A stretch of 60,918 bases of DNA. Source: a virus. Taxonomy: Duplodnaviria; Caudoviricetes. Both the position numbers and the translations under genes were made by a program. The stretch is taken from the IMG/VR virus record IMGVR_UViG_3300009180_000046, positions 1 through 60,918 of that record. One strand, written 5' to 3'. Below are positions 6,233-48,183 of this stretch, piece by piece (position 1 is the first letter of the stretch; every line of letters starts with the position of its first letter). A model generated the notes under the pieces. It was not told where the DNA came from. It saw only the letters and a list, made by a program, of their open reading frames with translations, and did not search any database.

Positions 6233-6417
6233 TTGTGTACAAAATATTTTAAAGTTTACATTTATAACTTATTGATATATAACTAGTTATAGTTTATATT
6301 ATTCTTTTATGTACAAAATGAACAAAATATATAAGGAAAATAGAAAAATTTTTTTTTCTTAAAAAATAAAAAATATTATTTACGCAATGGGGGGTAAAGT
6401 TCTACATTTGTACACAA
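6233..6417. repeat. origin-like element, copy 1 (diverged direct repeat of 58811-58994)
   Basis: ttgtgtacaaaat.ttttaaagtttacatttataactta...catttgtacacaa aligns end-to-end with 58811-58994. Confidence 0.85.
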
Positions 6418-11654: not shown

Positions 11655-11772
11655 ATTAGGTGTTGAGAATTCCTTATGGGATAACATTCGGGCTAACAAA
11701 GGGTCAGGCAAGAAGCCTACCAAAGAAATGTTAAAGCAAGAGAAGAAGATTATTGCTAAGAAAAAGAAGTAA
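11638..11772 (+). CDS. 44-aa basic peptide
   Basis: MAKLNKLGVENSLWDNIRANKGSGKKPTKEMLKQEKKIIAKKKK. Confidence 0.65.
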   Translation: MAKLNKLGVENSLWDNIRANKGSGKKPTKEMLKQEKKIIAKKKK

Positions 11773-12047
11773 TGAAAGCAACTGCAAAATTTTACGCAAC
11801 CCATCCTGAGGCTCGCAAGAAAAGGCTTGAATATCAAGCTGACTATAATAAACGTCCTGAGCAACTAAAGAAACGCATTGAGCTAAATAAGATCAATCGT
11901 GACCGTGGGCAGTATGCAGACAAAGATGGCAAAGACATGAGCCATAAAAAGAATGGACGTGTTGTTGAGGAATCAGCTAGTAAAAACCGTGGATCTAAAT
12001 CAAATGCTCCAGGTGACAGACGTGCCCGAGGGACTAAAAAAAAATAA
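11772..12047 (+). CDS. basic protein with degenerate HNH-like motif
   Basis: DGKDMSHKKNG...ESASKNRG. Confidence 0.55.
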   Translation: MKATAKFYATHPEARKKRLEYQADYNKRPEQLKKRIELNKINRDRGQYADKDGKDMSHKKNGRVVEESASKNRGSKSNAPGDRRARGTKKK

Positions 12048-17800: not shown

Positions 17801-20294
17801 ATTTGGAGTTTTTTCTCTTTTATTTAATTTAACAGGAAGCAATAACACGGCAATTGGAGGGTCTACTCTTTATTCTAATACAACAGGAGGAGCTAATGTT
17901 GCAATAGGCTTAAATGCTCTTTATTCTAATACAACAGGAGGTGCTAACACAGCAAATGGTGTCCAAGCTCTTTATGCTAATACATCAGGTATTTATAATA
18001 CTGCAATAGGTAGTACTGCTCTTTATGCTAATACAACAGCAAACTATAATACTGCAGTAGGAAATAATGCCCTTTTAGCTAATACAACAGGAGAAAACAA
18101 TACCGCACTAGGAAATAATGCTGGGCAAAGTATAACAACAGGTAGTAACAATGTTATTATTGGTGGTTATGCTGGAACTGCAGCTATGGCTAATAACATA
18201 GTTTTATCAGATGGGGCGGGAAATATAAAATATCAATGGAACGGAACTACTAATACGCTTTTTGGAACTACCACACTTACGGGAGCTTTAAGCGGTACAA
18301 GTGCTACGTTTTCTAGTAATACTGGAGTAATAGTAGGGGCAAATAGTAGGGCATTTATTCGCCAAACGGTTGGAGGAGATGCTGAAATGGGAGCAGCAAC
18401 AGGAGGATTATTAAGTATATTTAGTAACAATTCTAGTGTTTTATCTTTTGCAGTAGGAGGAGCCGCCACGTTTTCGAGTAGTGTTACGGCAACTTATGCT
18501 AGTTTATCTCAAGCGGGTTCAGCAACGACAATAACACAGAATGCAAGATTTTCGAATACAACAACATCAACCGCTAATGGTTCAGGCGTAGGATTTGATT
18601 TTGCATTAACAGATGCGACAGGAGCAGGAAAACAAACAGGTCAAATAGCAAGTGTTTGGTCAGACAATAGTGCTAATGATGTTGCTGATTTAGCTTTTTA
18701 TACAAGACCGACAGGAGCAGGTATTTCTGAAAAATTAAGAATTACAGGAAATGGTAATGTAGGAATAAATATGACTTCGCCAAGTGCTAAAATGCAAATT
18801 TTAAGCACTTCAGCAGGATCTGCAACCGTAGGATTGTTTTTAAATAATTTCAGCACTACAATAAATACAGAAATTAGATTAGCTTTTGCAGCAAATACAA
18901 ATGATGATATAGCATCTAATAGATATTCCTACATTTCTGCTTTAAATACTAGTGGAAGCAATGGACAAGCTTTATTATTTGCAACTAATGAAGCGGGTGC
19001 TTCTGCGGTAGAACGTATGCGGATTGCTAGTGGAGGTACAGTAAGTATTGGAAATTCATCTCCACAAAATTTATTTAACGCAAACGTAAGAGGATTAGTA
19101 TTTGGTAATTATTCTTCTTTATCAAGTAATAGTTCTTCAGGATGGACAAGTTTAGCTAACAATGCAGCTCAAACAATAGGTTCATCTGAAACAAGTGGAT
19201 GGTCATATCAAAATACTGATGCAGCAGCAAAACTTTCATTAACAAACGGTGGATTTGCATTTCAAGTATCAGGTTCAGGAACAGCAGGAACCGCAATTTC
19301 GTGGACAACTGCTATGACAATTATGAATGCGGCTAATGCAGGAAAGGTAGGCATCGGAACAGCTACGCCAAGCTCATTATTAACAGTAGCAGGCACAACA
19401 GATTTAGCTTATACAAATGGTACTACTATTTTTAGAATTGATAGAAGTGGTTCAGTAGTTAGATTACAAAATTATAGTTCAGGTTCTGCGGCTAATATAT
19501 CTTTAGCTTACGATGGGGGCAACGTAGGCATCGGAACGACTTCGCCTGTATTTAAACTAGATGTTCGAGATACATCTACTAGTAATGTTGTCGTTTCAGG
19601 ATTTGTAAATACTTCTACTGCATCAAATACGACTAAATCAACAACCATTTCTTTATTGCTTACAGACACTGCTGGAACTGCTAAAGATGTAGCTTATTTA
19701 AGAGCATTTACTGATGGGGTCAACGTTTTGGCGGGCGGGCTAGCTTTTGATACTAGACGTACTGATACTACACCTGTTGAAGCGATGCGGATTACTAGCG
19801 GGGGTTCTTTATTAATTGGTCAATCAGCATCTAGTCTAACTGATAACGGTTGGAATTTGGCTAATAGTGGAGGAGGACATACTGCTTTTCAAATTACAAA
19901 TAATGAAGCATTTATATTTAATAATAGAACAGGTGGTACAACTTATCAAATTGATTTTAGAACTCTACAAGTAGAAAGAGGAAATATAACTGTTAGCGAT
20001 GTAGCGGTAGCTTATAACACTGTTTCGGATTACAGATTAAAAGAGGATTTAAAACCTATTAAAGGACTTGAAATTGTTAACAAAATTAATGTTTACGATT
20101 ATAAATGGAAATCCGAAAATACTCGAATGGATGGTGTTTTAGCTCACGAGCTACAAGAAATCCTTCCTTATGCGGTTCAAGGAATTAAAGATGGAGAAAA
20201 AATGCAAAGCGTAGACTATTCCAAAATCGTTCCCGTAATGGTGCAAGCAATTAAGGAGCTAACAGAAAAAGTAAAAACTTTAGAAAACAAATAA
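14844..20294 (+). CDS. long tail fibre: (G-T-S)n collagen-like tracts, beta-roll repeats, C-terminal S74 intramolecular chaperone
   Basis: GTSGTT repeats; NTA.G..AL..NTTG repeats; GNVGIGT motifs; SDYRLKE...GVLAHELQE...VDYSKIVPVMVQAIKEL. Confidence 0.9.
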   Translation: MARISTYSIDTYVTGLDRVIGSDWNTEYKTTKNFTTNDIADYFNRVGIIDTGSFNWTYRMYAPTESQPAKTFELVDHPYDTVDVIALAGTIKVSFLTLANTEPGVFIEETWLDKIILINRPGFPSEYGLYKVTAVVHSGDYYFLDLDFIGGNSGIIYEDESVSFGLFSGVSGTSGTTGTSGTSGTTGTSGSSGVNGTSGSSGTTGTSGTAGTSGTTGTSGTTGTSGSSGTGGTSGTSGTNGSGGTSGTRGTSGTSGIDGIDGTDGTSGTDGTGGTSGTNGSAGTSGTDGTGGTSGIDGTSGSSGTSGIDGTSGVDGTSGTTGTSGTAGTDGTGGTSGTSGVSGTSGIDGTSGTTGTSGSSGTDGTGGTSGTNGTGGTSGVSGTAGTSGTTGTSGSGGTSGTGGTSGQNGASNNLFLYRARTTIQTGYPSDGHLLWNNATQINSTQINISHLTDNGIDIDIFLGLIQDSQQITIQDQNLSDNYQTWNVNGTPTEVLGVDNYWIVPVTLISSAGTGTTNFANNHPLFLAIVSQSGTSGVNGTSGTSGTTGTSGTGGTSGINGTSGSSGINGTSGISGTSGVSGTSGINGTSGIDGTSGVSGTSGVSGTAGTSGVNGTSGVSGTSGINGTSGINGTSGVSGTSGTGGTSGTGGTSGTTPDPSLYVLKSGSTMTGGLVINPANSAVIGLDAASDTFRLRSDSTQPFARQLTTTMGSGTTVKIQAAGYTGTYVTDIGLYTSSNSSVNSTPNIYLTGGDNRVGINNVTPAYTLDVTGTAGVSGQLTLGSTITNGTYTYTLPGATGTLALVGSLGSYVPYTGATTDVVLGTNNLKSKSVYVEGDGAFTSGALFLKQYASGATNVTGYNIITTQTSGFLFSASVAASFKNFILDASSLTDVTQRTYTLPNASGTLALTSSLASYVPYTGATGAVNLGAFDLTVNSIRVGRGAGSIADNIAVGASALNSNTTGTSNTAVGNLSLFTNTTGGGNSSFGVFSLLFNLTGSNNTAIGGSTLYSNTTGGANVAIGLNALYSNTTGGANTANGVQALYANTSGIYNTAIGSTALYANTTANYNTAVGNNALLANTTGENNTALGNNAGQSITTGSNNVIIGGYAGTAAMANNIVLSDGAGNIKYQWNGTTNTLFGTTTLTGALSGTSATFSSNTGVIVGANSRAFIRQTVGGDAEMGAATGGLLSIFSNNSSVLSFAVGGAATFSSSVTATYASLSQAGSATTITQNARFSNTTTSTANGSGVGFDFALTDATGAGKQTGQIASVWSDNSANDVADLAFYTRPTGAGISEKLRITGNGNVGINMTSPSAKMQILSTSAGSATVGLFLNNFSTTINTEIRLAFAANTNDDIASNRYSYISALNTSGSNGQALLFATNEAGASAVERMRIASGGTVSIGNSSPQNLFNANVRGLVFGNYSSLSSNSSSGWTSLANNAAQTIGSSETSGWSYQNTDAAAKLSLTNGGFAFQVSGSGTAGTAISWTTAMTIMNAANAGKVGIGTATPSSLLTVAGTTDLAYTNGTTIFRIDRSGSVVRLQNYSSGSAANISLAYDGGNVGIGTTSPVFKLDVRDTSTSNVVVSGFVNTSTASNTTKSTTISLLLTDTAGTAKDVAYLRAFTDGVNVLAGGLAFDTRRTDTTPVEAMRITSGGSLLIGQSASSLTDNGWNLANSGGGHTAFQITNNEAFIFNNRTGGTTYQIDFRTLQVERGNITVSDVAVAYNTVSDYRLKEDLKPIKGLEIVNKINVYDYKWKSENTRMDGVLAHELQEILPYAVQGIKDGEKMQSVDYSKIVPVMVQAIKELTEKVKTLENK
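15348..16070 (+). repeat. coding G-X-Y (mostly GTS) repeat tract 1
   Basis: Gly at every third residue for ~240 aa. Confidence 0.9.
16439..16805 (+). repeat. coding G-X-Y (GTS/GIN/GVS) repeat tract 2
   Basis: Gly at every third residue for ~120 aa. Confidence 0.9.
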
Positions 20295-23481: not shown

Positions 23482-24036
23482 ATGAAGTCGCCCTATTATT
23501 TTTTGGTAACACCAAAGGGGGGCAAACGGTATGATAATCAAAGAGGAGAACTTTATATTTCTACCTCCAAAGAAGATCATCGTGTAACGACAAGAGAAGC
23601 TGTTGTTATCTCAACCCCTATTAATTACACTGGCCCTATCGAGCCTGGAGACACAATTGTGTGCCATCATAATACTTTCAGGATATACTATGACATGCGA
23701 GGTAGAGAGAAGTCTGCTTGGAATTACTTCCGGGATGATTTGTTCTTTATTGATGACCCATATGCATACAAGAAACCAGGTGGTGAGTGGAAGGGGATAG
23801 GTAGATATCTGTTCATCAAGCCAATCGACAATGACTTTGAAGGCATTACATCTGCGGATGCAAAGAAGCCTCTTACAGGCACGATAAGATACACGAACGA
23901 TGAGATACTAGACTTGGGTGTAAAAGAGGGCGACACGGTCACGTTCGAGCCTGAGAGCGAGTATGAGTTCGACCTAGATGGTGAGATTTTATATCGCATG
24001 TACACCAAGAATGTAACAATAAAATTGAATGAATAA
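23482..24036 (+). CDS. tandem GroES-like co-chaperonin
   Basis: Two GroES-like halves: FLVTP...AVVIS...IEPGDTIV and YLFIKP...GTIRY...VKEGDTVTF...LDGEILYRM. Confidence 0.65.
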   Translation: MKSPYYFLVTPKGGKRYDNQRGELYISTSKEDHRVTTREAVVISTPINYTGPIEPGDTIVCHHNTFRIYYDMRGREKSAWNYFRDDLFFIDDPYAYKKPGGEWKGIGRYLFIKPIDNDFEGITSADAKKPLTGTIRYTNDEILDLGVKEGDTVTFEPESEYEFDLDGEILYRMYTKNVTIKLNE

Positions 24037-33963: not shown

Positions 33964-36900
33964 ATGATAGAACTTCAAAGAAACTTCCTTTCAGGGGTCA
34001 TGAATAAAGACCTTGACCCTCATTTTTTACCAGATGGTGCATATAGAGATGCGCTTAATATTATTGTGGGTGATTCTGATGGGGCATTTGTCGAGGAAGA
34101 TGGCTCACGTAATGGCGTAGCTCAAAACTACTTAGGTAATATTTTAAAGGGAAGTGATTTAGAGTTAGTCAATGCAATGTGTATTGGGTCTCTTGCGTAC
34201 GAAACAAATAATTCAATTTATTGGTTAGTAGCATCCGATACCCTAGATGCTATATATGAGTATAATGAAACATTAGATACATTAACTCCAGTTATTCAAG
34301 CTACTAAACTAACATCTACCACGCCTTCATTGCTTGGCTTTAACAAGGAGTATTTTGTTACAGGCATAAATTATATCAATGGACTTCTTTTCTGGACTGA
34401 CAACTTAAATCCTCCCCGCAGGATTAATATTGATCGTGCAAAGAATTATGCGGTAGATGGGTTTACCGATGCGGACATTAATGTCATCTTGGCCCCACCA
34501 TTATCTGCACCAACAATTAACTTATATTCAGAAGGTGAGGCCAATAACTTAGAGAATAAGTTTCTTTACTTTTCTTATAGATATAAGTATTTAGATAACG
34601 AATATAGTGCCCTGTCTCCATTTTCTCCTGTAGCTTTCTTCCCAAAAGAATACGCATATGACTATGGTGTATCAGAGAATATATCTATGGTTAATAATTT
34701 TAACACAGCAGATATAACTTTTAATTCAGGTGATAAGAATGTAAAAGAAATACAATTAATATTTAGGGATACATTAAGTACAAATACCTATGTGATTGAT
34801 AATTTAGTTAAATTATTAAATGATTACACGGACAATACAGAATATTCTTTTCAATTTAAAAATAATAAAGTATTTACATTATTGCCAATTGAGCAAGTAA
34901 ATAGACTTTTTGACAATGTACCAATTAGAGCAAAGTCTCAAGAATTAATTGGAAGCAGATTGGTGTATGGTAATTATACCCAATTCTTTGATTTATTAAA
35001 GGAGAACAAGGAGCCCATCAATCCAGCCTTCTCTGTATCATTTATACCTAATTCGGTGGTTAGCGGTACTCCTACTCCTACATTTAAGAGTAATAGAGAT
35101 TACGAAATTGGTATTGTATATTTAGATGATTATGGCAGAACAACTACTGTAATTACGCCTACAGAAAATACTAATACAGTATTTATACCAGCATCGAGTG
35201 CCATTAAGGCAAATAATATTCGAATTACTATTGATGGGACATACCAACCTCCTGCTTTTGCTACGTATTATCGTTTTATGATTAAACAAGATAAGCAAGA
35301 GTACTATAATTTATTCCCATTGACTTATTTTGAAGATGGTCAATTTAAATGGTTCTTGATTAATCAAGCGGATCAAGACAAGATATCTGTAGGTTCTTAT
35401 TTGTATTTAAAGGGCTTGTCAAATAATACCAATATACAATATAAGGTATTAGACATTCAGTCTAAAAATGCAAACTTTTTAAATACGTCTAACGTAAATC
35501 AACCCGCAGGTGTATATTTTAGAATAAAAATTGATGATGCAGTCTTACCTCCAATTACATCTTATTCAGATGCTCAAGTAAGTGATAGCTCATCTACAGA
35601 CACACCTGTTTTTGATAGATTTAGTGTTGCTGAGAATGCAATATTTTATGGTATAGGGTTAAATGATATGACCACTGGTGCATCAAATGCATATAGTGGG
35701 GTAGATGATATTAGATTCTATGTTCAAATAGATAGCGCAAGTACATTTAAATATTACGCTACATATAAGGGAACGTATAAGAATTTAGTTGCATCAAATG
35801 TAGCCATAACGGCAGGCGTTGATCAAGTTTTGACATATTCGGGCCTTAGTTGTTCGATTAATTTTGTATCAGCAACAGGTCATACAATAGATGATTATTG
35901 GGTTGTAAACTGTGTTAGTACAGGAGGTTATAGTATTTTCGGTGGATCTACTAACGAAAGTACATTGCTTTATCCTACTGCATTTTTTACGTTTACAGAT
36001 TGGTCAATAAGCCCATCAGATGATGAGGACAGACCAATTAAAGCGGGTGCTATAGTTACCTTTAAATATAAGGAAACTGACAACACTGACCAGTGGATTA
36101 CTCAAACATTTATCTCAACAAAGGACTATGTTAACATAGAGGAATGGTTTGTTGAAGATTATGTATATAAAAAATGGATTCAATATGATGGTCAATCTAA
36201 AAATTTAGGTGCAAGAAATATTGTATTTAGAAGAGGTGTAGCATCTGCTATAAATCCATCTAGAATATCTCAAGGTGGATCTATAAGTACTGCTTCATTA
36301 GCTTATCCTGTCTATATGTATTTCTATACATATCAATCTACAACAAGTGGAGCTAACGTAGATACTAATTTTAATCTACAGCAATCTGATTATCCATCTT
36401 TGTTTGAGACAGTTCCAGTAGACACCAATCAAGATATATATTATGAGCTTTCACAAACGTATCCTATTATCAATGGCAATCACTATGGAAATGTTGATAA
36501 TCAAGATGTTGCGTTGGGGGCTCCGGCAATAATAGATTTAAACACCTTAAATTTTAATTCAGATTTTAATGCATTTACATTTGGTAACGGAGTAGAAAGT
36601 TTTAGAATTCGTGACGACTTTAATTCCGCAACAATGCAGTTTAGCCCACGAGCTAACTCAACTATTGAAGGATATAAGCAGGAAACGGTTGTTCAGGCAT
36701 TAACATATAGCGGTGTTTATACTCAAACAACCGGAATTAATAGATTAAATGAGTTTAATTTATCACTTGGTAACTTTAAATATTTAGATAGATTCTTTGG
36801 TTCTATTCAAAAATTGTATTCAAGAGATACGGATTTAGTTGTATTGCAAGAAAACAAAGTATCTAAAGTTCTTTATGGTAAAAATTTATTAAGTGATTCT

Positions 36901-38082
36901 ACTGGAGGTGGCGTGGTAACATCCGTTCCCGAAGTGTTAGGAACTCAAATTGCTTACATAGGGGAATATGGAATTAGTTTAAACCCTGAAAGTTTTACTA
37001 TATGGGGTAATGACTTATTCTTTACAGATGCAAGACGTGGTGCTGTTTTGGCATTACAACCTAATGGGCTATTTGAGATATCTTCTCAAGGAATGAAGAA
37101 CTGGTTTAAGGCTAACCTAGATACTAATACAGTAAAACTAGGAATGTTTGATCCGTATTTTGAAAATTATGTATTAGCTGCAGATAATGATAGAAAAATT
37201 AAAACTTGTTCTATATCTGTTACTCCTACAACATTAACATTTGACGGCACTGTTCAAAAGAAATCATTCTATATTGAGTCTAATACTGATTGGATAATAA
37301 CAGTCCCTGTTAATGATTGGTTAACAGTTAGCGATATATTTGGTTCAAATAATCAATTGATTTATGTAGAAGTTTTAGAAAATTTAGGAGCTCCAAGAGA
37401 TTTAGATATTACAATATCTGGTTGTACTGAAGATATTATATTAACTGTTGAACAAGATACGAGACCACCATTAGACGAATACTATGTAATGCATAAGTGT
37501 TCTGACGGTGCTGAAGCTAATTCTATTGCATACCCAGCTGACACATTTGAAATTGATGATAGAGTTACATCAGGTGGTAATACTTATGTTATAGATGGTA
37601 TTATTAATTATAATCCGGGAGGTTCATTGCTTGCAATTACTGCAACAGGATTAACAGGATGCCCTAGTGCTCCTAGTTATGAGTGGTATGTTTTATATAA
37701 ATGCTCTGATGGATCATCAGCAAACTCAGAAGTTTACGCAGGTAATACATTTGAGTTAGATGATAGAGTCACATCGGGTGGTAATACATATATTGTAGAT
37801 GGTATTATTAATTACAATCCGGGTGGTACTTTGCTTGCAATTACTGCGACGGGATTAACAGGATGTCCTAGCCCAACTACTTATTATGAGTTAGCTGAGT
37901 GTTCACCTGGTACAGGATACGCATATACCACAATTGTTCCAGGAGCAGTTGGAAGAAGATATGTATTACCTAGTGGAAGCCCTATTTTCTATACGTTTAC
38001 AGGAGCTACATTATCGCAATACTCGCCTCCTGTTGGGTATAATGGCTCAATTCAAATAACATCGTTCTATAGTTGTCCGTAA
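33964..38082 (+). CDS. tail muzzle/stabilisation protein with C-terminal BACON-like Ig domain and Cys-bounded repeats
   Basis: GVMNKDLDP..LP.G.YRDALN N-terminus, LFWTDNLNPPR.IN, FTDARRGAVL; BACON pattern near aa 1085-1165. Confidence 0.75.
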   Translation: MIELQRNFLSGVMNKDLDPHFLPDGAYRDALNIIVGDSDGAFVEEDGSRNGVAQNYLGNILKGSDLELVNAMCIGSLAYETNNSIYWLVASDTLDAIYEYNETLDTLTPVIQATKLTSTTPSLLGFNKEYFVTGINYINGLLFWTDNLNPPRRINIDRAKNYAVDGFTDADINVILAPPLSAPTINLYSEGEANNLENKFLYFSYRYKYLDNEYSALSPFSPVAFFPKEYAYDYGVSENISMVNNFNTADITFNSGDKNVKEIQLIFRDTLSTNTYVIDNLVKLLNDYTDNTEYSFQFKNNKVFTLLPIEQVNRLFDNVPIRAKSQELIGSRLVYGNYTQFFDLLKENKEPINPAFSVSFIPNSVVSGTPTPTFKSNRDYEIGIVYLDDYGRTTTVITPTENTNTVFIPASSAIKANNIRITIDGTYQPPAFATYYRFMIKQDKQEYYNLFPLTYFEDGQFKWFLINQADQDKISVGSYLYLKGLSNNTNIQYKVLDIQSKNANFLNTSNVNQPAGVYFRIKIDDAVLPPITSYSDAQVSDSSSTDTPVFDRFSVAENAIFYGIGLNDMTTGASNAYSGVDDIRFYVQIDSASTFKYYATYKGTYKNLVASNVAITAGVDQVLTYSGLSCSINFVSATGHTIDDYWVVNCVSTGGYSIFGGSTNESTLLYPTAFFTFTDWSISPSDDEDRPIKAGAIVTFKYKETDNTDQWITQTFISTKDYVNIEEWFVEDYVYKKWIQYDGQSKNLGARNIVFRRGVASAINPSRISQGGSISTASLAYPVYMYFYTYQSTTSGANVDTNFNLQQSDYPSLFETVPVDTNQDIYYELSQTYPIINGNHYGNVDNQDVALGAPAIIDLNTLNFNSDFNAFTFGNGVESFRIRDDFNSATMQFSPRANSTIEGYKQETVVQALTYSGVYTQTTGINRLNEFNLSLGNFKYLDRFFGSIQKLYSRDTDLVVLQENKVSKVLYGKNLLSDSTGGGVVTSVPEVLGTQIAYIGEYGISLNPESFTIWGNDLFFTDARRGAVLALQPNGLFEISSQGMKNWFKANLDTNTVKLGMFDPYFENYVLAADNDRKIKTCSISVTPTTLTFDGTVQKKSFYIESNTDWIITVPVNDWLTVSDIFGSNNQLIYVEVLENLGAPRDLDITISGCTEDIILTVEQDTRPPLDEYYVMHKCSDGAEANSIAYPADTFEIDDRVTSGGNTYVIDGIINYNPGGSLLAITATGLTGCPSAPSYEWYVLYKCSDGSSANSEVYAGNTFELDDRVTSGGNTYIVDGIINYNPGGTLLAITATGLTGCPSPTTYYELAECSPGTGYAYTTIVPGAVGRRYVLPSGSPIFYTFTGATLSQYSPPVGYNGSIQITSFYSCP
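37483..37872 (+). repeat. 204-bp tandem coding duplication
   Basis: Units start at 37483 and 37687: YV..KCSDG..ANS..Y...TFE.DDRVTSGGNTY..DGIINYNPGG.LLAITATGLTGCPS. Confidence 0.9.
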
Positions 38083-38109
38083 CATTAAAATAAGTAAATT
38101 TGTAAGCAT

Positions 38110-38838
38110 ATGGCTAACTATACAATAACATATTCTCCAAGATTATCAGGATGGACATCATACCACTCATATTTACCTGAGTGGATGGTGTCTATGAATA
38201 ATTATTTGTACACATTTAAGAACGGTAATTTATATAAGCACAATTCTAATACAACTAGAAATAGTTATTATGGCGTATTATACCCATCTAAAATAACTAC
38301 TATTTTTAATAATGAGCCATCGCAAACCAAATCTTTCAAAACCATAGCCACTAATTCAACTACTGCTTGGGAAACAGATATTTTATCTGACCAAGGGAGT
38401 GGTTATATTGATGCAGGATGGTATGATTTAAAGGAAGGCACATGGTATGGCTATATTAGAAGAACTGAATTATCTGCTAATAATATATCTATGACATCTG
38501 TCCAAGGTATAGGCAATGTGACTACTTATGTAGCAGGTGTACTTACATTTGCTTTTGACATTGGTCACATAATTAGTACAGGAGATACTCTTTATTGGGT
38601 GAATTCAGGCGTACTTACGCTTATTGGTACAATAACAGCGCATGCTGCAAATACGGTGACAGTAACTGTAACAGGAACTCCACCAACAAATGGTAGCTTT
38701 ATTCTTTATGAAAAAAGTCCAGTAGCTGAATCTAGTCCAACAAGAGGAACTTATCTAAGCGTAGAGTTTACTAATAGCGATACTACTTATACAGAAATGT
38801 TTATGGTAACTTCTGACGTATTCAAGAGTTATCCTTGA
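38110..38838 (+). CDS. tail protein (muzzle C-terminal-like)
   Basis: TITYS....GWTSYHSYLPEWM..MNN.LYTFKNG.LYKHN; TAAATTTG at 38095. Confidence 0.65.
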   Translation: MANYTITYSPRLSGWTSYHSYLPEWMVSMNNYLYTFKNGNLYKHNSNTTRNSYYGVLYPSKITTIFNNEPSQTKSFKTIATNSTTAWETDILSDQGSGYIDAGWYDLKEGTWYGYIRRTELSANNISMTSVQGIGNVTTYVAGVLTFAFDIGHIISTGDTLYWVNSGVLTLIGTITAHAANTVTVTVTGTPPTNGSFILYEKSPVAESSPTRGTYLSVEFTNSDTTYTEMFMVTSDVFKSYP

Positions 38839-39987: not shown

Positions 39988-41490
39988 ATGGCAGAATACG
40001 CAGGATATGTAGCATCGCAGCCGGTAGATTATGGCAAAATAGGAACAGGACTTGTTTCTAACCTTATTTCTATACAGGAAAAAAAGGCTGAGTATGATGA
40101 AAAAAAACAATTAACTCTTGAAAAGCAACAAGAAAAAGAAGATGTATTATTAGATAGAGATAGCCAAAAAATACAAGATCAAATTAATAAAGATATTTCT
40201 AGTACAGGTTCTCAGAACTTGCAAAGAATAAGTAGTCAATCTGTATACGAAGCTGCTAATGCTGCAGCTCAATTAGGAAGATTAGCCAAGGCTGACAGAA
40301 AAAATGCATATGCATACACTCAAAAGGCCCAAGCATTAGCTAAAAATGTTGGCAGCTTAAGACAAACATTTAATGCCTACGCAAAAGGTTATGATGAAAT
40401 TTTAAAATTAAGTGCAGGACAAGAATTAGATGCATTAGGAGAGGCTATGGCTAAAGATTATGCGCAAGCTGGCGATTTAAATGATGTAAATGCTGGTGTT
40501 GCAAATGATCAAAAAATTGTTTTTTATAAAAAAGATCCAAAAACTGGAGAAGTTATTACTATGGATCCAGAAGTTTATACGGATTACAATAGATTTGTTT
40601 CTAAAAAAGTAGATTACAATAAACTTTTTAATGATTTTACGACCAATAGAATAGGCGAATTTGAGTCTACCTCAAGAGGAGGTGCTTTAACCAAGATTGA
40701 TAGCACTTCAATAATGAATAACCCTAATTTTGAGCCTGAAAAGAAAAAATTCGTTAGTAATTTAACTGCAACTCCATTCAGTACTGCTAAATTTTTAACC
40801 ACGGAAGATCCTAGTTATCAAATTTATCGCGATGAAACTGAGAAAAAACAGTTAATTGAAGATGGTTTTGATGAAAACAAATTAATTAAATTAGGTAAAG
40901 ATGCGGGTGGATACCCTAAGCCTATTATAACAGATGAGATGAAAACTGTTGCTGAGAAATTAGCATCAGATAAAATACAGGCATCTGTTTCATTTAAAAC
41001 AACAGAAAGAAAGAACCCTAATATTATTATTACAACACCTAAGGAGCCTAAGGATATACCAAGGATGGATGTAGTAGAAGCTAAGAAAAAAATACGTCAA
41101 ATTGAATCAAAAGATGATTCTGATGCTATATTTAGAAAAGCTCCAGGATCTGTAGTTAAGTTGGAAAATTTGGCTAAAAAAGCTGGATATAAAAATGTAA
41201 CAATAGTTGATTTACCTGGGGGAGGTCTGGGTATTAGAGCAACAGTGGGAGCTGAAAAAAGACCTTCTAAAGCTAAGGTAATTCAAGAATTCACTAATGG
41301 AGAATCCATTTATTCTTGGAGAAATGGTTTAGACCCTATTGTTGGATCAAATGAATATGCAGAATTAGCTCAAGAAAGAAAAGAAGATTATTTAGACATT
41401 GTTAATGCTGGTAAGGGGCAGATGTTAAAGAGAGCAGCAAAGAGTACAGGTGCAACAAGCACCCAAAAAAAACCAGGTAAATACGACTAG
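39988..41490 (+). CDS. internal virion/ejection protein
   Basis: 500-aa helical protein between ejection genes. Confidence 0.6.
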   Translation: MAEYAGYVASQPVDYGKIGTGLVSNLISIQEKKAEYDEKKQLTLEKQQEKEDVLLDRDSQKIQDQINKDISSTGSQNLQRISSQSVYEAANAAAQLGRLAKADRKNAYAYTQKAQALAKNVGSLRQTFNAYAKGYDEILKLSAGQELDALGEAMAKDYAQAGDLNDVNAGVANDQKIVFYKKDPKTGEVITMDPEVYTDYNRFVSKKVDYNKLFNDFTTNRIGEFESTSRGGALTKIDSTSIMNNPNFEPEKKKFVSNLTATPFSTAKFLTTEDPSYQIYRDETEKKQLIEDGFDENKLIKLGKDAGGYPKPIITDEMKTVAEKLASDKIQASVSFKTTERKNPNIIITTPKEPKDIPRMDVVEAKKKIRQIESKDDSDAIFRKAPGSVVKLENLAKKAGYKNVTIVDLPGGGLGIRATVGAEKRPSKAKVIQEFTNGESIYSWRNGLDPIVGSNEYAELAQERKEDYLDIVNAGKGQMLKRAAKSTGATSTQKKPGKYD

Positions 41491-41505
41491 TTATAATTAA
41501 TATTC

Positions 41506-44500
41506 ATGGATAACGGAAAAAGTTTATATAAACAATTGAGTTCGGATAAATTATATACAAAGTCATATGATGATTTTGTTAAACAATATGGTAACCCAGA
41601 AGGGCAAAAAGAACTGTTTAACAAATTAAGTTCAGATGATTTATATACTAAATCTGAAGAAGAATTTGTTAGTCAATACTGGTCTCCTTTAAAAAAAAAA
41701 GAACCTACGGTATCGAATTCCACTTTGCCGGCTGCTCCATCTACATTGGGATCAAAAGACTTGGGGAAGAAACTTATTTTGGAGTCTGCTTCAAAAGGTA
41801 CTAAAGAAAAGAAACCAAAGCCTGGTGAGAGTGAAGGGTTGCTATTAAAGGATCCTAGTAAATTCAACATAAACTACTTTGACCCATCTAAAAAAGATTG
41901 GCAAGGTCAGTTATATGAGGATGTTAAGATTGAGGATTTGTCTAAAAGTGTTACCACATCTGCTAATGATTTAGCTAAGATGAGTAAGGATTATAAGGCA
42001 AAACAAGATGCATTAAACAAAGAGATAGAAAGCCTAAATGGTCTTATTCAAACTGGATCTATTTCTCCACAAGAAGCTGCTCAAGCACAATCTGAATTAA
42101 AAAAACAGCAAGACTTAACAACTTTTGAGTCTGTTAAAATCTCTGAACTCGCAAGAAGAACAGAGGCTGATCAAGCACGTTTAAATAAAAATGTAGGAGT
42201 ATTAGCATACGAGAAAGCCCACGAAGGATCATTTGGTGGTGCTGCTTGGAATAGTATTGTTGATTCAATAAAAGGAATCGTTAGTGCATATGATACAATA
42301 GGCAATGAAATTTTCACTGAAAACCTAGCTTTATTTCAAGGTATAGGTGCTCTTGCATCTTCTAAATCTGCAAAAGATTGGGAAAAAGAAGCTTTAAAAA
42401 AGAATTTAAGTAAAGCACAAAAAGATAGGAGAGAACGTGTTTTTGAAGAAATAAAATCCTCAACAACGAAAGAGTATGCTGCTCGCATATCAAAAGAAAG
42501 CGATTGGGCCGCTGCTGCACTTGGTGTAACTGGATCTGTTGTACCAATGTTTACAGGTAGTATGTTTACTTCCACGTTTGGTTCCGCAAAAGAGGCTCTA
42601 GACGATATGGAAGGGTCTGAAAATATGACCGAAGGAGAGAAAGTAATCTATGCTACATCAGTGGGTTTGGTTGCAAGAAAACTTGAGAACCTTGGTTTGA
42701 AAGGAATTCAGGCCGCAGTAAAGGGGACAGCTGGTCCAGTAGCTAAATTTGCATCTTGGGTATTTAGATCAGTCCCTAAAAATGCACCAATAAGTATTAT
42801 AGAGAAAAAAGTAGCCGAGTTAGCTGCAACTACAGCTGGACAAAAAATATTACAATTAGCTGATACAAAGGTGGGTAAAGCTGCAGTTGGATTAGGTGAA
42901 TCTATAGTCAGTGAAGGGTATACAGGTGGTTCACAGAAAGCTGCTGAAATGGGAATACAAGAACTAGTTGATTCAGCTAATGGTCTTGATGTATTTAAAA
43001 ACCCAGAATTAACTTCGGCTGCAGCTGCAGAAGCTATTGTACAAGATGCTAAGTTAGAAGCCATGGGTTCTGTACTTATGTTTGGGGTTGGATATGGAGC
43101 AAAGACTTTATTACAAGCTTCCACATCTGGTAAACTATCAGACAAACAATATGCAGATTACAAAGCAATGTTATCTAGCCCAGAATTGTACCAGGCAAAA
43201 ATATCTGAAATTAGTAAGCGCATTTCTAATGAACAAATAACCGTAGAAGAAGGTCAGGTAGAAGTTGATGAGATTAATAAAGCAAGAGATATCATCAAAC
43301 AAATACCAGAAAATCTATCTGAGAACAGTCAAAAGAAAGCGTTCTTATTAATATCTGAGAATAATAAAGTACAAGAAGAAATTGATCAGTTATCAAAAGA
43401 AATAGCTGACAAAAACCCTCAACTTGTTACAGGTGTAACCGAGCAGATAAATAAGAAACAAGAAGTAATAAATAATAATAATCAAAAACTTTTAGCCCTA
43501 CCACAAAATGCCGTTCAAGAGCAAACAACAAGTGAAGTACCTGTACAGCCAGAAACCGGAGTTAGCGGAGAAGTGGCGAAAGGAGAACCCCAATCAGAAA
43601 ATCAAGTCCCTATCGAAGAAGGTAAAGGGCAAGAAGTAGAAATTAAAAATGAAGGTAAAGCGGAATCACCTACAACAGAAAATGTTGAAGTAAGATTGCG
43701 TATAAATAATCCTTTTTATCAAAAAGTTTCAGATGCCTTAGATAAACTTGGTATAATTAAAAAATTTAATCCAGAAACACGAGAGGGTGATATTATTGGT
43801 GGTGTTCAACAGCCGATGAAAAACGGAGGTATAGCTTCTGGAGATATGTATTTTAAACCTGACGGATCAATATCATATATAAAAGATGGATATATTGTTG
43901 AGTTTGATAAAAATGGAAACGTTATTAGTCACAATAAAACAGAGGTAGAAGAAAATAATAAAAAACTAAAAACTCAAGCAGTTAAAGAAACCATAGAAAG
44001 TCTTAAGAAACAACGAGATTCAGAAGATTTTAAATACAAAGAAGTATCTGAAACTTCGGATGTTTTTGGAAATAGAAAAAAAACAAAAAGATTAAAAACA
44101 GCAGAAGAATTAAAAGAAAGTACTGATAAAATCAATGCAGCAATATCTAAAGCTGAAGAAGAATTATATCAATTAGAACCTCAAGCATCCATAGAAGAAG
44201 TATCTCCTACTGAAGAAGTTAATAAAGAAAAAGAGTTAAGAGATACTACTATAAACAAAGTTGTTGACGAAGTAAAAGAACAACAAAGAATTTACCCTAA
44301 GAGGTCTTTACTTAAGCACTTAGAATCAGGAATTAATAGTCTGCAGAAAAGTGATGCTTACGTTAATGCTGACGACATTACTAGAGAGCAAATGGTTCGT
44401 GATGTACGTAAAGCTTTAGGTGTAAAAGAAACCCGTGTTAAATCAAAGGTGTTGGCTGCAAAACCTGCCTCTAAAACTACTGTTGTAAATGATGCGGAAG

Positions 44501-47500
44501 CATTGAAGTCTAAATTAAAAGACTTAGAGAAGACAGATAAAGAAGCTAAGAGTTTTGCTGAGTCTGCTAAGAAAATTGTAACTGATTATGTTACTAAAAA
44601 TCTTAAAGGTGCAGTTGATGCTAAAGGATTAAAGAAGATTCTTGATGGGTTAAGTGGTTCATTATTGACTGCTGCGGACAGAGCTAAAGCTATTAGCAAA
44701 GTGATGGAAGTGGTTAATCAGTCTGAGAACGTAATAGCTATTGATAAACTCAAGTTGCTTAATGCTCAGATTAAATCTGAAGCAAGGGCTGCCAAGGCTG
44801 CAAAAAAGGAAGGTGTAAAAGAGACTAAGCAGCAACTTAATGAGAAGGCTGCTAAGAAAAAGCAAGTATTTGAAAGTGTTGTTGCTGAGGTTAAGGCTAT
44901 GCTTGGAAAAGCCAAAGTCTCTGCTAAAAATATTAAGACATTACTTACTGGATTAACAGCTAATTTAGAAAACGATACCATTCGTGAAAGAGTTTTAGAT
45001 AAAATTCGCAAAGTTCTTGCTAAAGCGGATTACTTGGAGACTTTAGCTAAAGCACAAGAAACTAGAAAGTCTGTTGCCAAACTTAAGAAGGCAGATAACA
45101 TTATTATATCATTAAAGAATGCGGCTAATGCTTTCTTGAAACTTAACCCTGAGTTAGTAGAAGATATTGATGAATACCAAAAGGTAGCTGATCAATTAAA
45201 GGCTGCCTTAGTTGCTCCAGTAATTACAGAAAAACAATTACAAGAATTTGATAAACTTGAGCAACAAACAGGTGAACAACCCAAGTTAACTAGATCAAAT
45301 AAAAAGACCACAGAAAAATACGAAGTCCTTAAATCTAAGATACCGGCTACACTAAGTTATGTGAAAGCATATGCTCAAGAGCAACAAAAACTTCAAGATG
45401 AAATCTTAAAGGAAATGAAGCTTGCGGAATACCAAGACTTAGTTGACGAGGGTAAGATTAATAAAGATATGTCTTTGAAAGAAATTCAAAAGTATATCAA
45501 TGATATTGTTACAGATGAGCAGAAAGCTGAGAAGGCTGATGATAGAAAACAATTTGCAATAGAATATGTTCAAAAATCTTTTGACAATTTTAGAAACCAT
45601 GCAAGATTTATCTTAGATGGCTTTGCTCCTTTTGCTGGTCAAATTATTAAAACTTCTGACACTATTACTGGATTAGATAAGTTAGCTACAAATACAAAAA
45701 AAGTAGTAGATGAATTCTTAACTATTGATATATCTAAAGTTAAAGACATAAAGACTATGTTTGAAATGCAAGATGCATTAGCAAACTTTATTGTCAATGG
45801 TACTACAGATAGAATGGAAGCATTGTATGCCAGATATGAGGCAAATAAGGACGCTAAAGAGTTGTATGATTCAGGCAAAAGACTTCAGAATTTTAGGGCA
45901 ATATTTGGAGGCACAAATGCAGGTTCTTTAATGTGGGCTAAAAACATTACTCAAATAGATCAGCTATTTAGATGGGTAGGACGTGGTGCTGCTTTAGGTG
46001 ATTTAGTTAAGAAGTTATCAGGAATTACTGATTTTGAAAATCAGCAATCTCAAGCACAAGATAAGGTTAACGAAGTTAAAAAAGCATACTCTGATAAGTT
46101 TTTAAAAACTAAACCTAATGGCAAAAAGTTTTTAACTAAGGAGAATGTAAACGAAAGAGGTGTTTATGCAAGGCTTCTTCGTACTGTAGTTGGAGATTCA
46201 GATCAACAACAAAAAGAATTTGATAGAATGAAAAAACAAATTGATCAAACAATCAAGTTTCTTCTTCAGTCAAATGAAAAAGACTTTGTTAAAGAAGGCA
46301 AGGCTTATCAAAAGGTTTATGATAAAGTAAAGAATGCAAAAAACATACAGGAAGTACAGGCTATAATTGACCCAATAAATCAGCAAGCAGTCGAATTTAT
46401 TGCAGATGAATTTTCTTCACTATATCCTGAAATTAAAAATGTTGCTAGAAATGTTTACAATCTTGAATTAGAAGACGATTTATTCTACACACCTATATCA
46501 TATGCCGCAGTATCTGACAAAGGACGTCCGGGTACAGCAGGCAGAGGTACTTTTGGTTTTGGTCAAAACATATTAAGTACAGAAGCTAGTGGATCATTAC
46601 AAAAAGCTACAAGACCAGATGATTTACCAGGATATATTCCTGCAAAGAATGGTAAAGTAGAAGACTTTAGTGAAGTAGAAAGAGTTTTGGATTTGAATTT
46701 TGACACGACTGTATTTAATACAATGGAAAAGACATTGGCTGACACTTATACAGCCAAATCAGTGTCGAAGTGGGATGCATTTTCTAGTTCTAATGACTTC
46801 AAGAAAATGTTTCAATCGAATGCCGACTACGATGCCTTTGTTTCTGCTGTAGATTTTTATGTTAATAATTCGAGAGGGCGTGTCTTCAATAAGAGTACAC
46901 TTAAATTTGCTGTTGATGTATCAAATGCTCTGAAAACATATGCGGCAACTAGAGCCTTGGGATCTATTTGGGCATTTCCTAAGCAAGCTATTACTGCGTT
47001 ATTTAATACAGGTGTACAGTTAATTAATAATCCATCTGCATTTATGTCTGGTTTAGCAACGATGCGTAATGAAAAGGCAAACGAATTATTAGAAAAATCT
47101 GGACGCTCCATTAAATTACGTGGGTTAGAATCTACATCTGATTTAAAAGGAGAAGATGATTTAAAGATGAACTCCTTATTTGAAACAGCTACAAAACCAT
47201 CTCAGTTTATGGGTAAGTTTTGGATGAAAACATTCATGGGAGCTGGTGATAAGTACCCAGCAAGGGCGTCTTGGTGGGCATATTACTTCAATAAAATGGG
47301 TAATTTGGATAAAGATTTTAATGCAGGAGATATTGATTGGAATACTTATAAACTAAATGATGAGGCTGCTGATTATGCGAATACTCAAGTAAATATTGCC
47401 CAAAATGCTAGTGCACCTAATCAATTAGGCCAATTATTTACAAGTAAGGATCCGGTTAAGACTATAATTAGATCAATGGTTATACCATATGCTAGTTTTA

Positions 47501-48183
47501 TTTTCAATGCTAAAGATCGTATGAGACAAGACTTAACAGTTCTTACCTCTAAGAACTCTACTACTGAAGATAAATATGCTGCATCTAGATCATTTGCTGC
47601 AACTATGGGTGAAATGGTTATGTATCAGGGATTAGCATCTATGGGTAATTATGCATTAACCGAGTTAGCGGGCAAAGCAGCAGGCTTATTAAAAGACGAT
47701 GAAGAGGAAGCACAAAAGAAAATAGATATGTATCTTAAGTCTGCTTTAACACAGACAATTACTGATGTTGCTTCGCCTATACCCAACTTAGGTGATGTGG
47801 TTACTATTGCTACGGTAAACTGGCTTGCAGATATAGCTTCAGATGATGAAGAAGAAGATGCAGAAGGTAAGAAAAGTAATTACGGTTTATTATTTGAACA
47901 ACGTCCAGAGTCAATGATTGGTGCAATGACTAAGTTATTAGCATCTCCAATATCATCTATTGGAACAAGTGTTTATAGTATATATGATACATACGATAGA
48001 GCATACTCAGATGAATATAAAAATGCTAGAGGGCAGGTAATAGAGTTTACTCCTGAGCAAAGGGAGACCATGAAAGCTGTGTTAGCATTACAGGTTGCGA
48101 CAGCCTTGAATCTATTGCCGTCTGACGTTGATTCGTTCAACAGAAAAGTAATAAAGGCTATAGAAAAACAAGCTAAAGAGTAA
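41506..48183 (+). CDS. giant internal virion/ejection protein
   Basis: 2225 aa, helical, last gene of the structural module. Confidence 0.7.
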   Translation: MDNGKSLYKQLSSDKLYTKSYDDFVKQYGNPEGQKELFNKLSSDDLYTKSEEEFVSQYWSPLKKKEPTVSNSTLPAAPSTLGSKDLGKKLILESASKGTKEKKPKPGESEGLLLKDPSKFNINYFDPSKKDWQGQLYEDVKIEDLSKSVTTSANDLAKMSKDYKAKQDALNKEIESLNGLIQTGSISPQEAAQAQSELKKQQDLTTFESVKISELARRTEADQARLNKNVGVLAYEKAHEGSFGGAAWNSIVDSIKGIVSAYDTIGNEIFTENLALFQGIGALASSKSAKDWEKEALKKNLSKAQKDRRERVFEEIKSSTTKEYAARISKESDWAAAALGVTGSVVPMFTGSMFTSTFGSAKEALDDMEGSENMTEGEKVIYATSVGLVARKLENLGLKGIQAAVKGTAGPVAKFASWVFRSVPKNAPISIIEKKVAELAATTAGQKILQLADTKVGKAAVGLGESIVSEGYTGGSQKAAEMGIQELVDSANGLDVFKNPELTSAAAAEAIVQDAKLEAMGSVLMFGVGYGAKTLLQASTSGKLSDKQYADYKAMLSSPELYQAKISEISKRISNEQITVEEGQVEVDEINKARDIIKQIPENLSENSQKKAFLLISENNKVQEEIDQLSKEIADKNPQLVTGVTEQINKKQEVINNNNQKLLALPQNAVQEQTTSEVPVQPETGVSGEVAKGEPQSENQVPIEEGKGQEVEIKNEGKAESPTTENVEVRLRINNPFYQKVSDALDKLGIIKKFNPETREGDIIGGVQQPMKNGGIASGDMYFKPDGSISYIKDGYIVEFDKNGNVISHNKTEVEENNKKLKTQAVKETIESLKKQRDSEDFKYKEVSETSDVFGNRKKTKRLKTAEELKESTDKINAAISKAEEELYQLEPQASIEEVSPTEEVNKEKELRDTTINKVVDEVKEQQRIYPKRSLLKHLESGINSLQKSDAYVNADDITREQMVRDVRKALGVKETRVKSKVLAAKPASKTTVVNDAEALKSKLKDLEKTDKEAKSFAESAKKIVTDYVTKNLKGAVDAKGLKKILDGLSGSLLTAADRAKAISKVMEVVNQSENVIAIDKLKLLNAQIKSEARAAKAAKKEGVKETKQQLNEKAAKKKQVFESVVAEVKAMLGKAKVSAKNIKTLLTGLTANLENDTIRERVLDKIRKVLAKADYLETLAKAQETRKSVAKLKKADNIIISLKNAANAFLKLNPELVEDIDEYQKVADQLKAALVAPVITEKQLQEFDKLEQQTGEQPKLTRSNKKTTEKYEVLKSKIPATLSYVKAYAQEQQKLQDEILKEMKLAEYQDLVDEGKINKDMSLKEIQKYINDIVTDEQKAEKADDRKQFAIEYVQKSFDNFRNHARFILDGFAPFAGQIIKTSDTITGLDKLATNTKKVVDEFLTIDISKVKDIKTMFEMQDALANFIVNGTTDRMEALYARYEANKDAKELYDSGKRLQNFRAIFGGTNAGSLMWAKNITQIDQLFRWVGRGAALGDLVKKLSGITDFENQQSQAQDKVNEVKKAYSDKFLKTKPNGKKFLTKENVNERGVYARLLRTVVGDSDQQQKEFDRMKKQIDQTIKFLLQSNEKDFVKEGKAYQKVYDKVKNAKNIQEVQAIIDPINQQAVEFIADEFSSLYPEIKNVARNVYNLELEDDLFYTPISYAAVSDKGRPGTAGRGTFGFGQNILSTEASGSLQKATRPDDLPGYIPAKNGKVEDFSEVERVLDLNFDTTVFNTMEKTLADTYTAKSVSKWDAFSSSNDFKKMFQSNADYDAFVSAVDFYVNNSRGRVFNKSTLKFAVDVSNALKTYAATRALGSIWAFPKQAITALFNTGVQLINNPSAFMSGLATMRNEKANELLEKSGRSIKLRGLESTSDLKGEDDLKMNSLFETATKPSQFMGKFWMKTFMGAGDKYPARASWWAYYFNKMGNLDKDFNAGDIDWNTYKLNDEAADYANTQVNIAQNASAPNQLGQLFTSKDPVKTIIRSMVIPYASFIFNAKDRMRQDLTVLTSKNSTTEDKYAASRSFAATMGEMVMYQGLASMGNYALTELAGKAAGLLKDDEEEAQKKIDMYLKSALTQTITDVASPIPNLGDVVTIATVNWLADIASDDEEEDAEGKKSNYGLLFEQRPESMIGAMTKLLASPISSIGTSVYSIYDTYDRAYSDEYKNARGQVIEFTPEQRETMKAVLALQVATALNLLPSDVDSFNRKVIKAIEKQAKE
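43508..43639 (+). CDS. nested +1-frame micro-gene, MPFKS-type basic peptide (43 aa)
   Basis: MPFKSKQQVKYLYSQKPELAEKWRKENPNQKIKSLSKKVKGKK; A-rich leader cacaaaATG. Confidence 0.6.
   Translation: MPFKSKQQVKYLYSQKPELAEKWRKENPNQKIKSLSKKVKGKK

Follow-up and report, generated by a model that had tools for sequence, protein, structure and literature searches.

A conserved run of A residues near the start of a giant phage virion gene as a very probable slip site, and a probable second, short product ending in the -1 frame

The DNA examined here is that of IMG/VR virus record IMGVR_UViG_3300009180_000046 (Duplodnaviria; Caudoviricetes), positions 1 to 60,918, and the whole of these 60,918 nucleotides, which come from a freshwater phage, is referred to as the window. 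The last gene of its virion module is a giant open reading frame (ORF) of 2225 codons, the product of which is probably an internal virion protein that is ejected. A run of ten A residues (A10) is located 62 codons into this ORF, so that a shift of the reading frame would take place 3% into the gene. An earlier note on this DNA had proposed a probable -1 frameshift at this position, giving rise to an isoform of about 99 amino acids. Comparison with related phages supports this proposal, the isoform being composed of 65 residues read in the 0 frame and 34 residues read in the -1 frame. It is highly likely that the recoding site is real, and the gene very probably also makes this protein of roughly 99 residues, which has a conserved beta-sheet tail and is absent from the annotation. 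The features of the locus are as follows:

41506..48183, + strand: giant ORF in the 0 frame, 2225 codons (2225 amino acids), last gene of the virion module
41506..41691, + strand: N-terminal module, residues 1-62, with two copies of a motif of about 20 residues, common to both isoforms
41673..41804, + strand: stop-to-stop ORF of the -1 frame, opening six codons before the run and containing no ATG, GTG or TTG
41691..41700, + strand: A10 run, the putative slip site, codons CCT TTA AAA AAA AAA GAA (codons 61-66)
41700..41804, + strand: -1 tail, 34 codons plus TAA (41802-41804), reading RTYGIEFHF...FKRY
41701..41801, + strand: Ser/Thr/Pro-rich linker of the 0 frame, residues 66-99, starting EPTVSNSTLPAAPSTLGS and overlapping the -1 tail (dual-coding stretch)

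The run at 41691-41700 is the sole A or T run of at least ten nucleotides in the 60.9-kb window. Its position within an in-frame T TTA AAA AAA AAA was confirmed from the codons, and the N-terminal domain of 62 residues does hold the internal repeat LSSD.LYTKS..F..QY described by the earlier note, with two copies in residues 1-62. The -1 frame is free of ATG, as stated in the earlier note, and after the run it is open for 34 codons up to the TAA. The number of A residues agrees, without any indel, in contigs from two other DNA sequencing runs (X3, 41300-41829; X4, 41679-41829), and a contig from an RNA library (X21), which belongs to a relative with another N-terminal module, matches 41687-41717 exactly. 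A misassembly in a single sample does not account for the A10 length. X18 and X4 are contigs that share an end at 41682.

To determine the conservation of the run, related IMG/VR loci were collected by a profile-based scan, which yielded 73 loci (L002-L074); in the segment that matched best, their identity amounts to 20-60%. Together with L001 from an earlier scan, 74 loci were available. A run of nine to twelve A residues (A9-A12) is present at the junction in 72 of them, that is in all 72 loci having the 5' end of the gene, while this end is absent from L033 and L047. Within the first 750 nt of the giant ORF, a run of at least nine A was detected in 68 loci, and it also exists in L001, L020, L038 and L055. 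The conserved run that the earlier note had expected in homologous genes was thus found throughout. Among the 58 distinct junctions (window included), A10 is by far the most frequent form (48 junctions), followed by A12 (four), A11 (three) and A9 (three). The run starts at codon position 3 in 44 junctions, at position 2 in seven and at position 1 in another seven. Since the codon phase varies, the peptide reads KKK, EKKN, QKKN or KKKN while the A run persists. The codons preceding the run vary as well, since homologs carry GTA, ATA, GAA, CAA or other codons at this site. Hence, the conserved element is an A run of at least nine and not the heptamer T_TTA_AAA, which the earlier note had named along with the run. 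On metagenome contigs, a scan for the exact pattern gave no matches; a protein-based scan revealed one locus, L082, whose run has the in-frame length.

At the protein level, residues K63, K64 and K65 are invariant in all 15 aligned homologs and belong to the very few invariant columns within the N-terminal 100 residues. Elsewhere in the giant ORFs, none of 106 KKK triplets is encoded by pure A (AAAAAAAAA), although about 18 would be expected because AAA accounts for 55.6% of the Lys codons. The giant ORFs (441 kb) contain just two other A runs of at least nine, and 1.04 Mb of related loci outside the junction contain six such A runs and two such T runs in all. Therefore, long A runs are avoided everywhere but at the junction, where they are obligatory. 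These data indicate that the run is selected as DNA, independent of codon phase and against synonymous alternatives. Taken together, these comparisons mark the A10 as a slip site that is deeply conserved.

In none of the 58 junctions does the -1 frame open more than 19 codons ahead of the run. Not a single ATG occurs in this interval, GTG or TTG occur in three junctions, and in 13 junctions a stop codon of the -1 frame abuts the run. Due to the late opening and the lack of ATG, the -1 frame can be entered only through the run. Downstream, each of the 58 junctions has 18-51 open codons in this frame. For the +1 frame, the open length varies from 4 to 74 codons without a pattern.

Whether the open -1 frame is a mere consequence of the 0-frame peptide was analyzed by a recoding control, in which each 0-frame peptide was kept and synonymous codons were drawn from the genes' own usage. 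After recoding, the -1 frame was as open as observed with a median probability of 0.067 (range 0.003-0.64); with the window's own 0-frame peptide, it remained open that far in 2.4% of the trials. The -1 tails contain a motif consisting of an aromatic or aliphatic residue, Gly, and an aliphatic or aromatic residue, which occurs twice in short tails and three times in long ones such as that of the window. On average, 2.19 of these hydrophobic-Gly-hydrophobic motifs were counted per tail versus 0.19 after recoding (12-fold), and in 53 of the 58 junctions the p value was 0.05 or lower. With one representative of each of the 23 tail clusters (<50% identity), Fisher's combined p was 8e-12 for openness and 8e-35 for the motif, both values being upper bounds on significance. 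Positions G7 and G20 are invariant in 49 of 49 aligned tails. Calculated over the same nucleotides, the -1 frame has a pairwise identity of 0.29, compared with 0.23 for the 0 frame and 0.22 for the +1 frame.

The substitution pattern points in the same direction. In 18 overlapping pairs of related sequences, 44, 56 and 58 substitutions were counted at 0-frame codon positions 1, 2 and 3 of the overlap (0.094 per site), while the 900 nt downstream revealed 791, 622 and 1616 substitutions in the same pairs (0.21 per site). The overlap evolves 2.2 times more slowly than the downstream region and the excess at third positions is gone, as expected if two frames are read. In nine close homologs with an overall identity of 75-90%, 34 of the 35 positions from residue 63 to residue 97 do not vary. 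Conservation falls off at residue 98, and this drop coincides with the stop codon of the -1 frame. A single exchange in L082 (ACG GTA to ACG GAA) turns a 0-frame V into E but leaves the -1 peptide unchanged. These observations indicate that selection acts on both frames across the overlap. The earlier note had expected a conserved hydrophobic pattern in the -1 frame combined with a variable 0 frame. In distant homologs this holds true, as the hydrophobic/Gly pattern of the -1 frame is kept and the 0-frame linker varies. Within the close clade, however, the 0 frame is nearly invariant across the overlap, which is a signature of dual coding.

For the -1 tail, a structure was predicted by AlphaFold2 with 49 tails as input. 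The window's KKK plus tail (37 residues) was modelled as a three-stranded antiparallel beta meander with a mean predicted local distance difference test score (pLDDT) of 87.4. The predicted strands comprise residues 5-12, 15-24 and 27-36, in agreement with the three beta strands that had been read from the sequence. They are amphipathic, since hydrophobic and polar residues alternate. On the other hand, the supposed resemblance to outer-membrane barrel strands ending in an aromatic residue was not corroborated, as most tails end in Lys, Arg or other non-aromatic residues. Fold searches with a model of the short isoform (98 aa) did not yield any match with E <= 0.001, and the two top-ranking BFVD entries are viral proteins of considerable length (1314 and 1386 aa).

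A profile of the tail (HMMER) was used to search 1.84 billion representative proteins and produced 20 matches with E <= 0.001. One of them is an unrelated repetitive protein. The other 19 are small proteins of 67-115 aa, in which a two-repeat N-module, two to four Lys residues and the tail follow each other in a single ORF, exactly as predicted for the shifted product. P0054 is of the window's type. Folded together with 19 relatives, it begins with two helix-loop-helix repeats, thus four helices (pLDDT about 80-86), to which the three strands are attached (pLDDT about 60-68). Ten of the fused ORFs were looked up. They proved to be singletons; nine are located on contigs of 0.6-5.8 kb, and for one cluster there is a second member, located on a contig of 27.9 kb. 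As singletons on short contigs, the fused ORFs are therefore rare run-length variants or homopolymer errors. Nevertheless, these ORFs show that the -1 reading would make a sensible protein. In contrast to the profile search, a word-based search did not recover any protein with the window's -1 ORF. A different organization was seen in P0047, a database protein of 115 aa, which has KKK, about 20 residues resembling the 0-frame linker and then the Gly-motif tail in one ORF. Here, the frame changes downstream of the run, which corresponds to a different indel or a different arrangement.

The N-terminal modules upstream of the run differ among relatives. Among proteins that are 75-90% identical to that of the window, three unrelated modules, each with an internal duplication, are exchanged exactly at the run (window 41506-41691; L001 2864-3002; L082 136-285; proteins P0002-P0009), and the 58 junctions fall into 15 N-module groups. 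Such a pattern resembles an exchange of modules, the right-hand boundary of which would be formed by the run together with the dual-coded stretch. The tail does not track the N-module, which suggests that module and tail act independently.

Some cultured phages possess the same layout. In Tenacibaculum phage Gundel_1 and the Cellulophaga phages phi38:1 and Calle_1, an A10 run is in frame with giant structural proteins, and the -1 frames comprise 24-30 codons with two hydrophobic-Gly-hydrophobic motifs. The N-module of P0041, one of the short fused proteins, is 46-48% identical to those of the Cellulophaga phages phi18:3, phi19:3 and phi46:3. The GenBank records of these three phages and of phi13:2, which has yet another N-module, contain an A9 run (7180-7188 in L075, L076 and L077, which are phi19:3, phi46:3 and phi18:3; about 1375-1383 in L081, phi13:2). 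Due to the A9, the annotation shows the N-module as a coding sequence (CDS) of its own with 88-103 aa and, behind it, a giant CDS whose start is doubtful. In these records, one additional A would be required for the giant frame, and two additional A residues or one fewer for the Gly-motif frame. Either the A9 is a homopolymer miscall, or in this lineage both products need slippage. The giant protein of phi18:3 (gp123) is a virion protein according to tandem mass spectrometry (MS/MS). By hhalign of the A1 profile against the giant proteins of phi18:3, Gundel and phi38:1, homology was not detectable. The cultured phages are linked to the window's family by layout and N-modules only.

The following scenario would account for these data. 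The A10 would serve as a programmed slip site, through which most expression would pass straight to give the virion protein of 2225 aa. A fraction would shift to the -1 frame and end 34 codons further on, resulting in a protein of about 99 aa that consists of the two-repeat N-module, the Lys stretch and the amphipathic beta meander. RNA polymerase would add one A to the mRNA by slippage and thereby bring the tail in frame, and translation would then proceed normally. A ribosomal -1 shift on A_AAA_AAA may contribute. With moderate confidence, slippage of RNA polymerase is considered the leading mechanism. It is favoured because the run has a length of at least nine, is independent of codon phase, is mostly associated with an A_AAA_AAG that lies out of frame, and is not accompanied by a folding signal. 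For bacterial RNA polymerase, a slippage threshold of nine or more A/T and an RNA-DNA hybrid of 9-10 bp have been described (PMC5009743). The folding of RNA next to the run, calculated for the 58 junctions, gave mean minimum free energy z scores of -0.49 downstream, -0.31 upstream and -0.44 for a control stretch, i.e. no signal, with mononucleotide shuffles as reference and pseudoknots outside the model. Among the 52 window ORFs scanned, none was identified as a phage RNA polymerase, which makes it probable that the host enzyme transcribes the giant gene.

Several points weigh against the proposed recoding or soften the evidence for it. The shift is deduced here from the comparison of DNA and not from RNA or protein. 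The sequencing runs were analyzed as contigs, which drop minority variants, and the sole RNA-library contig across the run has A10. The motif used in the recoding tests was defined after inspection of the data, and the shared ancestry of the loci makes the p values overstate independence; for both reasons they have to be taken as upper bounds. The 18 pairs of the substitution analysis are not mutually independent. The fused short ORFs may be homopolymer errors instead of products. The hidden Markov model of the tail assigns only 8-9 bits (E 0.3-0.6) to the junction frames of the cultured phages, which with the exception of Gundel are near the top of their loci, and gives no match for that of Gundel. 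The role of the short isoform is a matter of inference alone. Finally, each run of at least nine contains an in-frame A_AAA_AAA (58 of 58 junctions).

The last point leads to the possibility that the same two products arise from mRNA of templated length by ribosomal -1 frameshifting or by sliding of ribosomes on A_AAA_AAA. This alternative is the strongest of the competing explanations, although rather unlikely. In addition to A_AAA_AAA, some junctions including that of the window contain T_TTA_AAA, the conserved ORF without start codon begins near the shift site and its frame is always -1, and A stretches of Lys codons cause ribosomes to slide (PMC4363877). A ribosome would, however, need only seven A residues, while no in-frame allele with a run shorter than nine was found at the 58 junctions. 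The run is followed by G in 46 of them but out of phase, so that the efficient A_AAA_AAG is not in frame, and A_AAA_AAA is far less shift-prone than A_AAA_AAG in Escherichia coli (PMC5009743). Moreover, a stimulatory structure was not indicated downstream of the run. The claim of the earlier note is thus upheld with respect to the shift into the -1 frame; its ribosomal nature is less certain, as run lengths and the lack of RNA structure favour the polymerase at least equally.

It is very unlikely that the run is a DNA contingency locus, at which replication slippage yields A8 or A11 genomes making the short protein and A10 genomes making the giant one. In favour of this, the fused short ORFs (19 clusters) would require runs altered in length by +1 or -2 and, as described, the four Cellulophaga phage records have an A9 with the N-module out of frame and two CDS. 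On the other hand, the in-frame length was found in 72 of 72 IMG/VR loci with the 5' end, in L082, in the window and in the contigs of the two other runs, whereas the fused forms examined are singletons on short contigs. Rare run-length variants are explicable by homopolymer miscalls, and loss of the giant virion protein would probably leave a genome inviable on its own.

Equally improbable is the assumption that the run merely throttles the output of the giant protein as a poly-A attenuator, with the -1 peptide as a functionless by-product. Less protein is made from genes with A-rich Lys stretches (PMC4363877), and runs of this kind are avoided elsewhere in the giant genes. Yet an attenuator does not explain that the -1 frame is kept open, with invariant Gly residues and a hydrophobic pattern, that wobble substitutions of the 0 frame are suppressed while the +1 frame is unconstrained, and that the tail is folded confidently by AlphaFold2. 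That the -1 frame is hydrophobic by chance and the run a sequencing error can be virtually dismissed, since the reading of TCN and ACN codons of a Ser/Thr/Pro linker one base early does automatically produce some hydrophobicity (xTC and xAC; Phe, Ile, Val, Tyr), but recoding with the 0-frame peptide kept reproduces neither the open frame nor the motif, and the run length was confirmed in independent contigs and 72 loci.

The slippage of RNA polymerase proposed here for the giant gene has counterparts in bacteria. In Thermus thermophilus, dnaX is subject to transcriptional slippage on a run of nine, while E. coli dnaX is recoded by a ribosomal -1 shift at A_AAA_AAG (PMC5009743). Like the tau and gamma products of dnaX, the giant and the short protein would be encoded by one gene, the long product in the 0 frame and a shorter one with a common N-terminus, with slippage setting their ratio, and in both cases the signal is a homopolymeric A/T run of hybrid length (PMC5009743). 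By contrast, the shifted frames of dnaX stop almost at once without encoding a domain, whereas the present loci have a conserved tail of 18-51 aa that is predicted to fold. Furthermore, the shift occurs 3% into a giant gene and would give a mini-protein, and no stimulatory hairpin was found. In Shigella spa13 and mxiE and in Citrobacter tssM, which are likewise genes of injection machines, polymerase slippage on an A/T run opens an overlapping frame (PMC5009743; PMC4256274). There, ORFs are joined or extended to a longer product, while here the templated length would give the long and slippage the short protein; moreover, the gene in question is a phage virion gene.

In phage T7, a frameshift in gene 10 gives two proteins (10A and 10B) with a common N-terminus in a fixed ratio. 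The G and GT proteins of lambda are similar to the case proposed here in that a phage morphogenesis gene yields, through a programmed shift, a pair of products that share their N-terminus and occur in a fixed ratio (PMC5009743). However, the shifts of G/GT and 10A/10B are ribosomal -1 shifts near the 3' end and extend the protein. In addition, G/GT is located upstream of the tape-measure gene, and the podophage-type module of the window does not contain such a pair. A frameshift of the G/GT type in a tail assembly chaperone was discarded as an explanation, as only 65 of the 2225 codons precede the shift and the gene stands last in a virion module of podophage type.

With regard to the position of the gene, the giant protein resembles the cargo or ejection proteins of crassviruses (gp45-gp50 of PhiCrAss001), which are large virion-carried proteins encoded just after the muzzle gene and whose N-terminal segments lie in the tail, poised to leave first (PMC10172136). 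It differs from them in having no sequence similarity to solved chains or families. The text passages of PMC7886860 on frameshifting and slippage contain nothing on a recoding of the gp45-gp50 genes, while PMC10172136 was not searched for these terms. In the literature on crAss-like phages, phage transcriptional slippage, Pachyviridae and Cellulophaga phages, a published description of the recoding was not found.

If both proteins are made, the short isoform would attach, by means of the shared N-module, to the partner or site that the giant protein also binds, and its beta tail would self-associate or dock elsewhere, thereby fixing the amount or the position of the giant protein during assembly or ejection. 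It is doubtful, though conceivable, that the short isoform goes beyond this and serves the ejection machine as a subunit specialized as pilot or gate. In that case, the lineage-specific two-repeat module might dock on the partner, in the tail or in the host envelope, to which the giant protein also binds, and the Gly-striped amphipathic meander might self-assemble into a beta structure that inserts into a membrane or lines a channel and so clears a path for the giant protein. Many Bacteroidota phages, as a large group, would then encode an essential virion component only in an overlapping frame that is accessed by polymerase slippage.

Independent of its exact role, the short product would be a conserved protein so far missing from the annotation of a group of Bacteroidota phages that is widespread in aquatic habitats, with a similar layout in phi38:1, Calle and Gundel. 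The recoding would also account for the split of the gene into a small and a giant CDS in four GenBank genomes and suggests a simple rule for annotation, namely to look for an A run of at least nine after a short two-repeat module at the start of a giant virion gene. It is possible that a small partner protein sets the loading or release of giant cargo proteins. An RNA sequencing time series of phi38:1 infections, with raw reads, is reported (PMC5335546), as is infection proteomics (PMC13288928). Because RNA sequencing and proteomics of phi38:1 infections have been reported in print, the locus is a clean natural case to separate slippage of the polymerase from that of the ribosome.

The giant ORF itself did not match sequences in Pfam, PHROG or the PDB, for the latter with the single protein as well as with the A1 profile, and no meaningful Pfam match was obtained with the giant family or the short isoforms. 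When the giant gene was compared with a phage collection at the DNA and protein level, the result was nothing or weak tape-measure-like matches only, and a weak tape-measure-like stretch exists inside the giant protein. In databases, 35 homologs of 1600-3400 aa were detected. A protein-atlas search returned viral clusters without names and, at rank 27, one cluster with LPD39 on 55% of its members, which is a lead only. The region at 43606-44205 of the window (about residues 701-900 of the giant protein) is a hypervariable central insert that is replaced by unrelated sequences in different phages. Measured as the share of the commonest residue in nine close homologs, column identity is 0.41-0.55 in the insert versus about 0.9 on either side. 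The insert is presumably comparable to the variable payload regions of large polyvalent virion proteins.

The virion module located 5' of the giant ORF on the + strand comprises genes for a terminase, a portal protein and several PHROG 'virion structural proteins' as well as a gene with a crAss_MUZ_C domain. The latter lies two genes upstream of a gene of about 500 aa, which precedes the giant ORF. Due to the position at the end of the module, the gene order fits that of the virion-carried giant protein of Bacteroidota podophages, for which virion MS/MS is recorded only in the case of the cultured-phage giants. At 33964-38838, a muzzle-like function seems to be split, since a virion protein of 1372 aa (phrog_14478) is followed by a protein of 242 aa with the crAss_MUZ_C domain, which matches the C-terminus of a PHROG profile of 1783 positions.

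Further upstream, at 14844-20294, the window encodes a tail-fibre-like protein of 1816 aa, which contains collagen repeats and ends in a Peptidase_S74 domain (intramolecular chaperone). The phage also has chaperonin genes, one GroEL-like and one GroES-like, at 6487-8043 and 23482-24036 (PHROG E values 1e-128 and 8e-21, respectively). A T9 run (6349-6357) lies about 130 nt upstream of the GroEL-like gene. An A9 run at 12036-12044 (ACT AAA AAA AAA TAA) abuts the stop codon of an ORF at 11772-12047 (phrog_6437, function not annotated), and slippage at this run would lengthen the product of the ORF.

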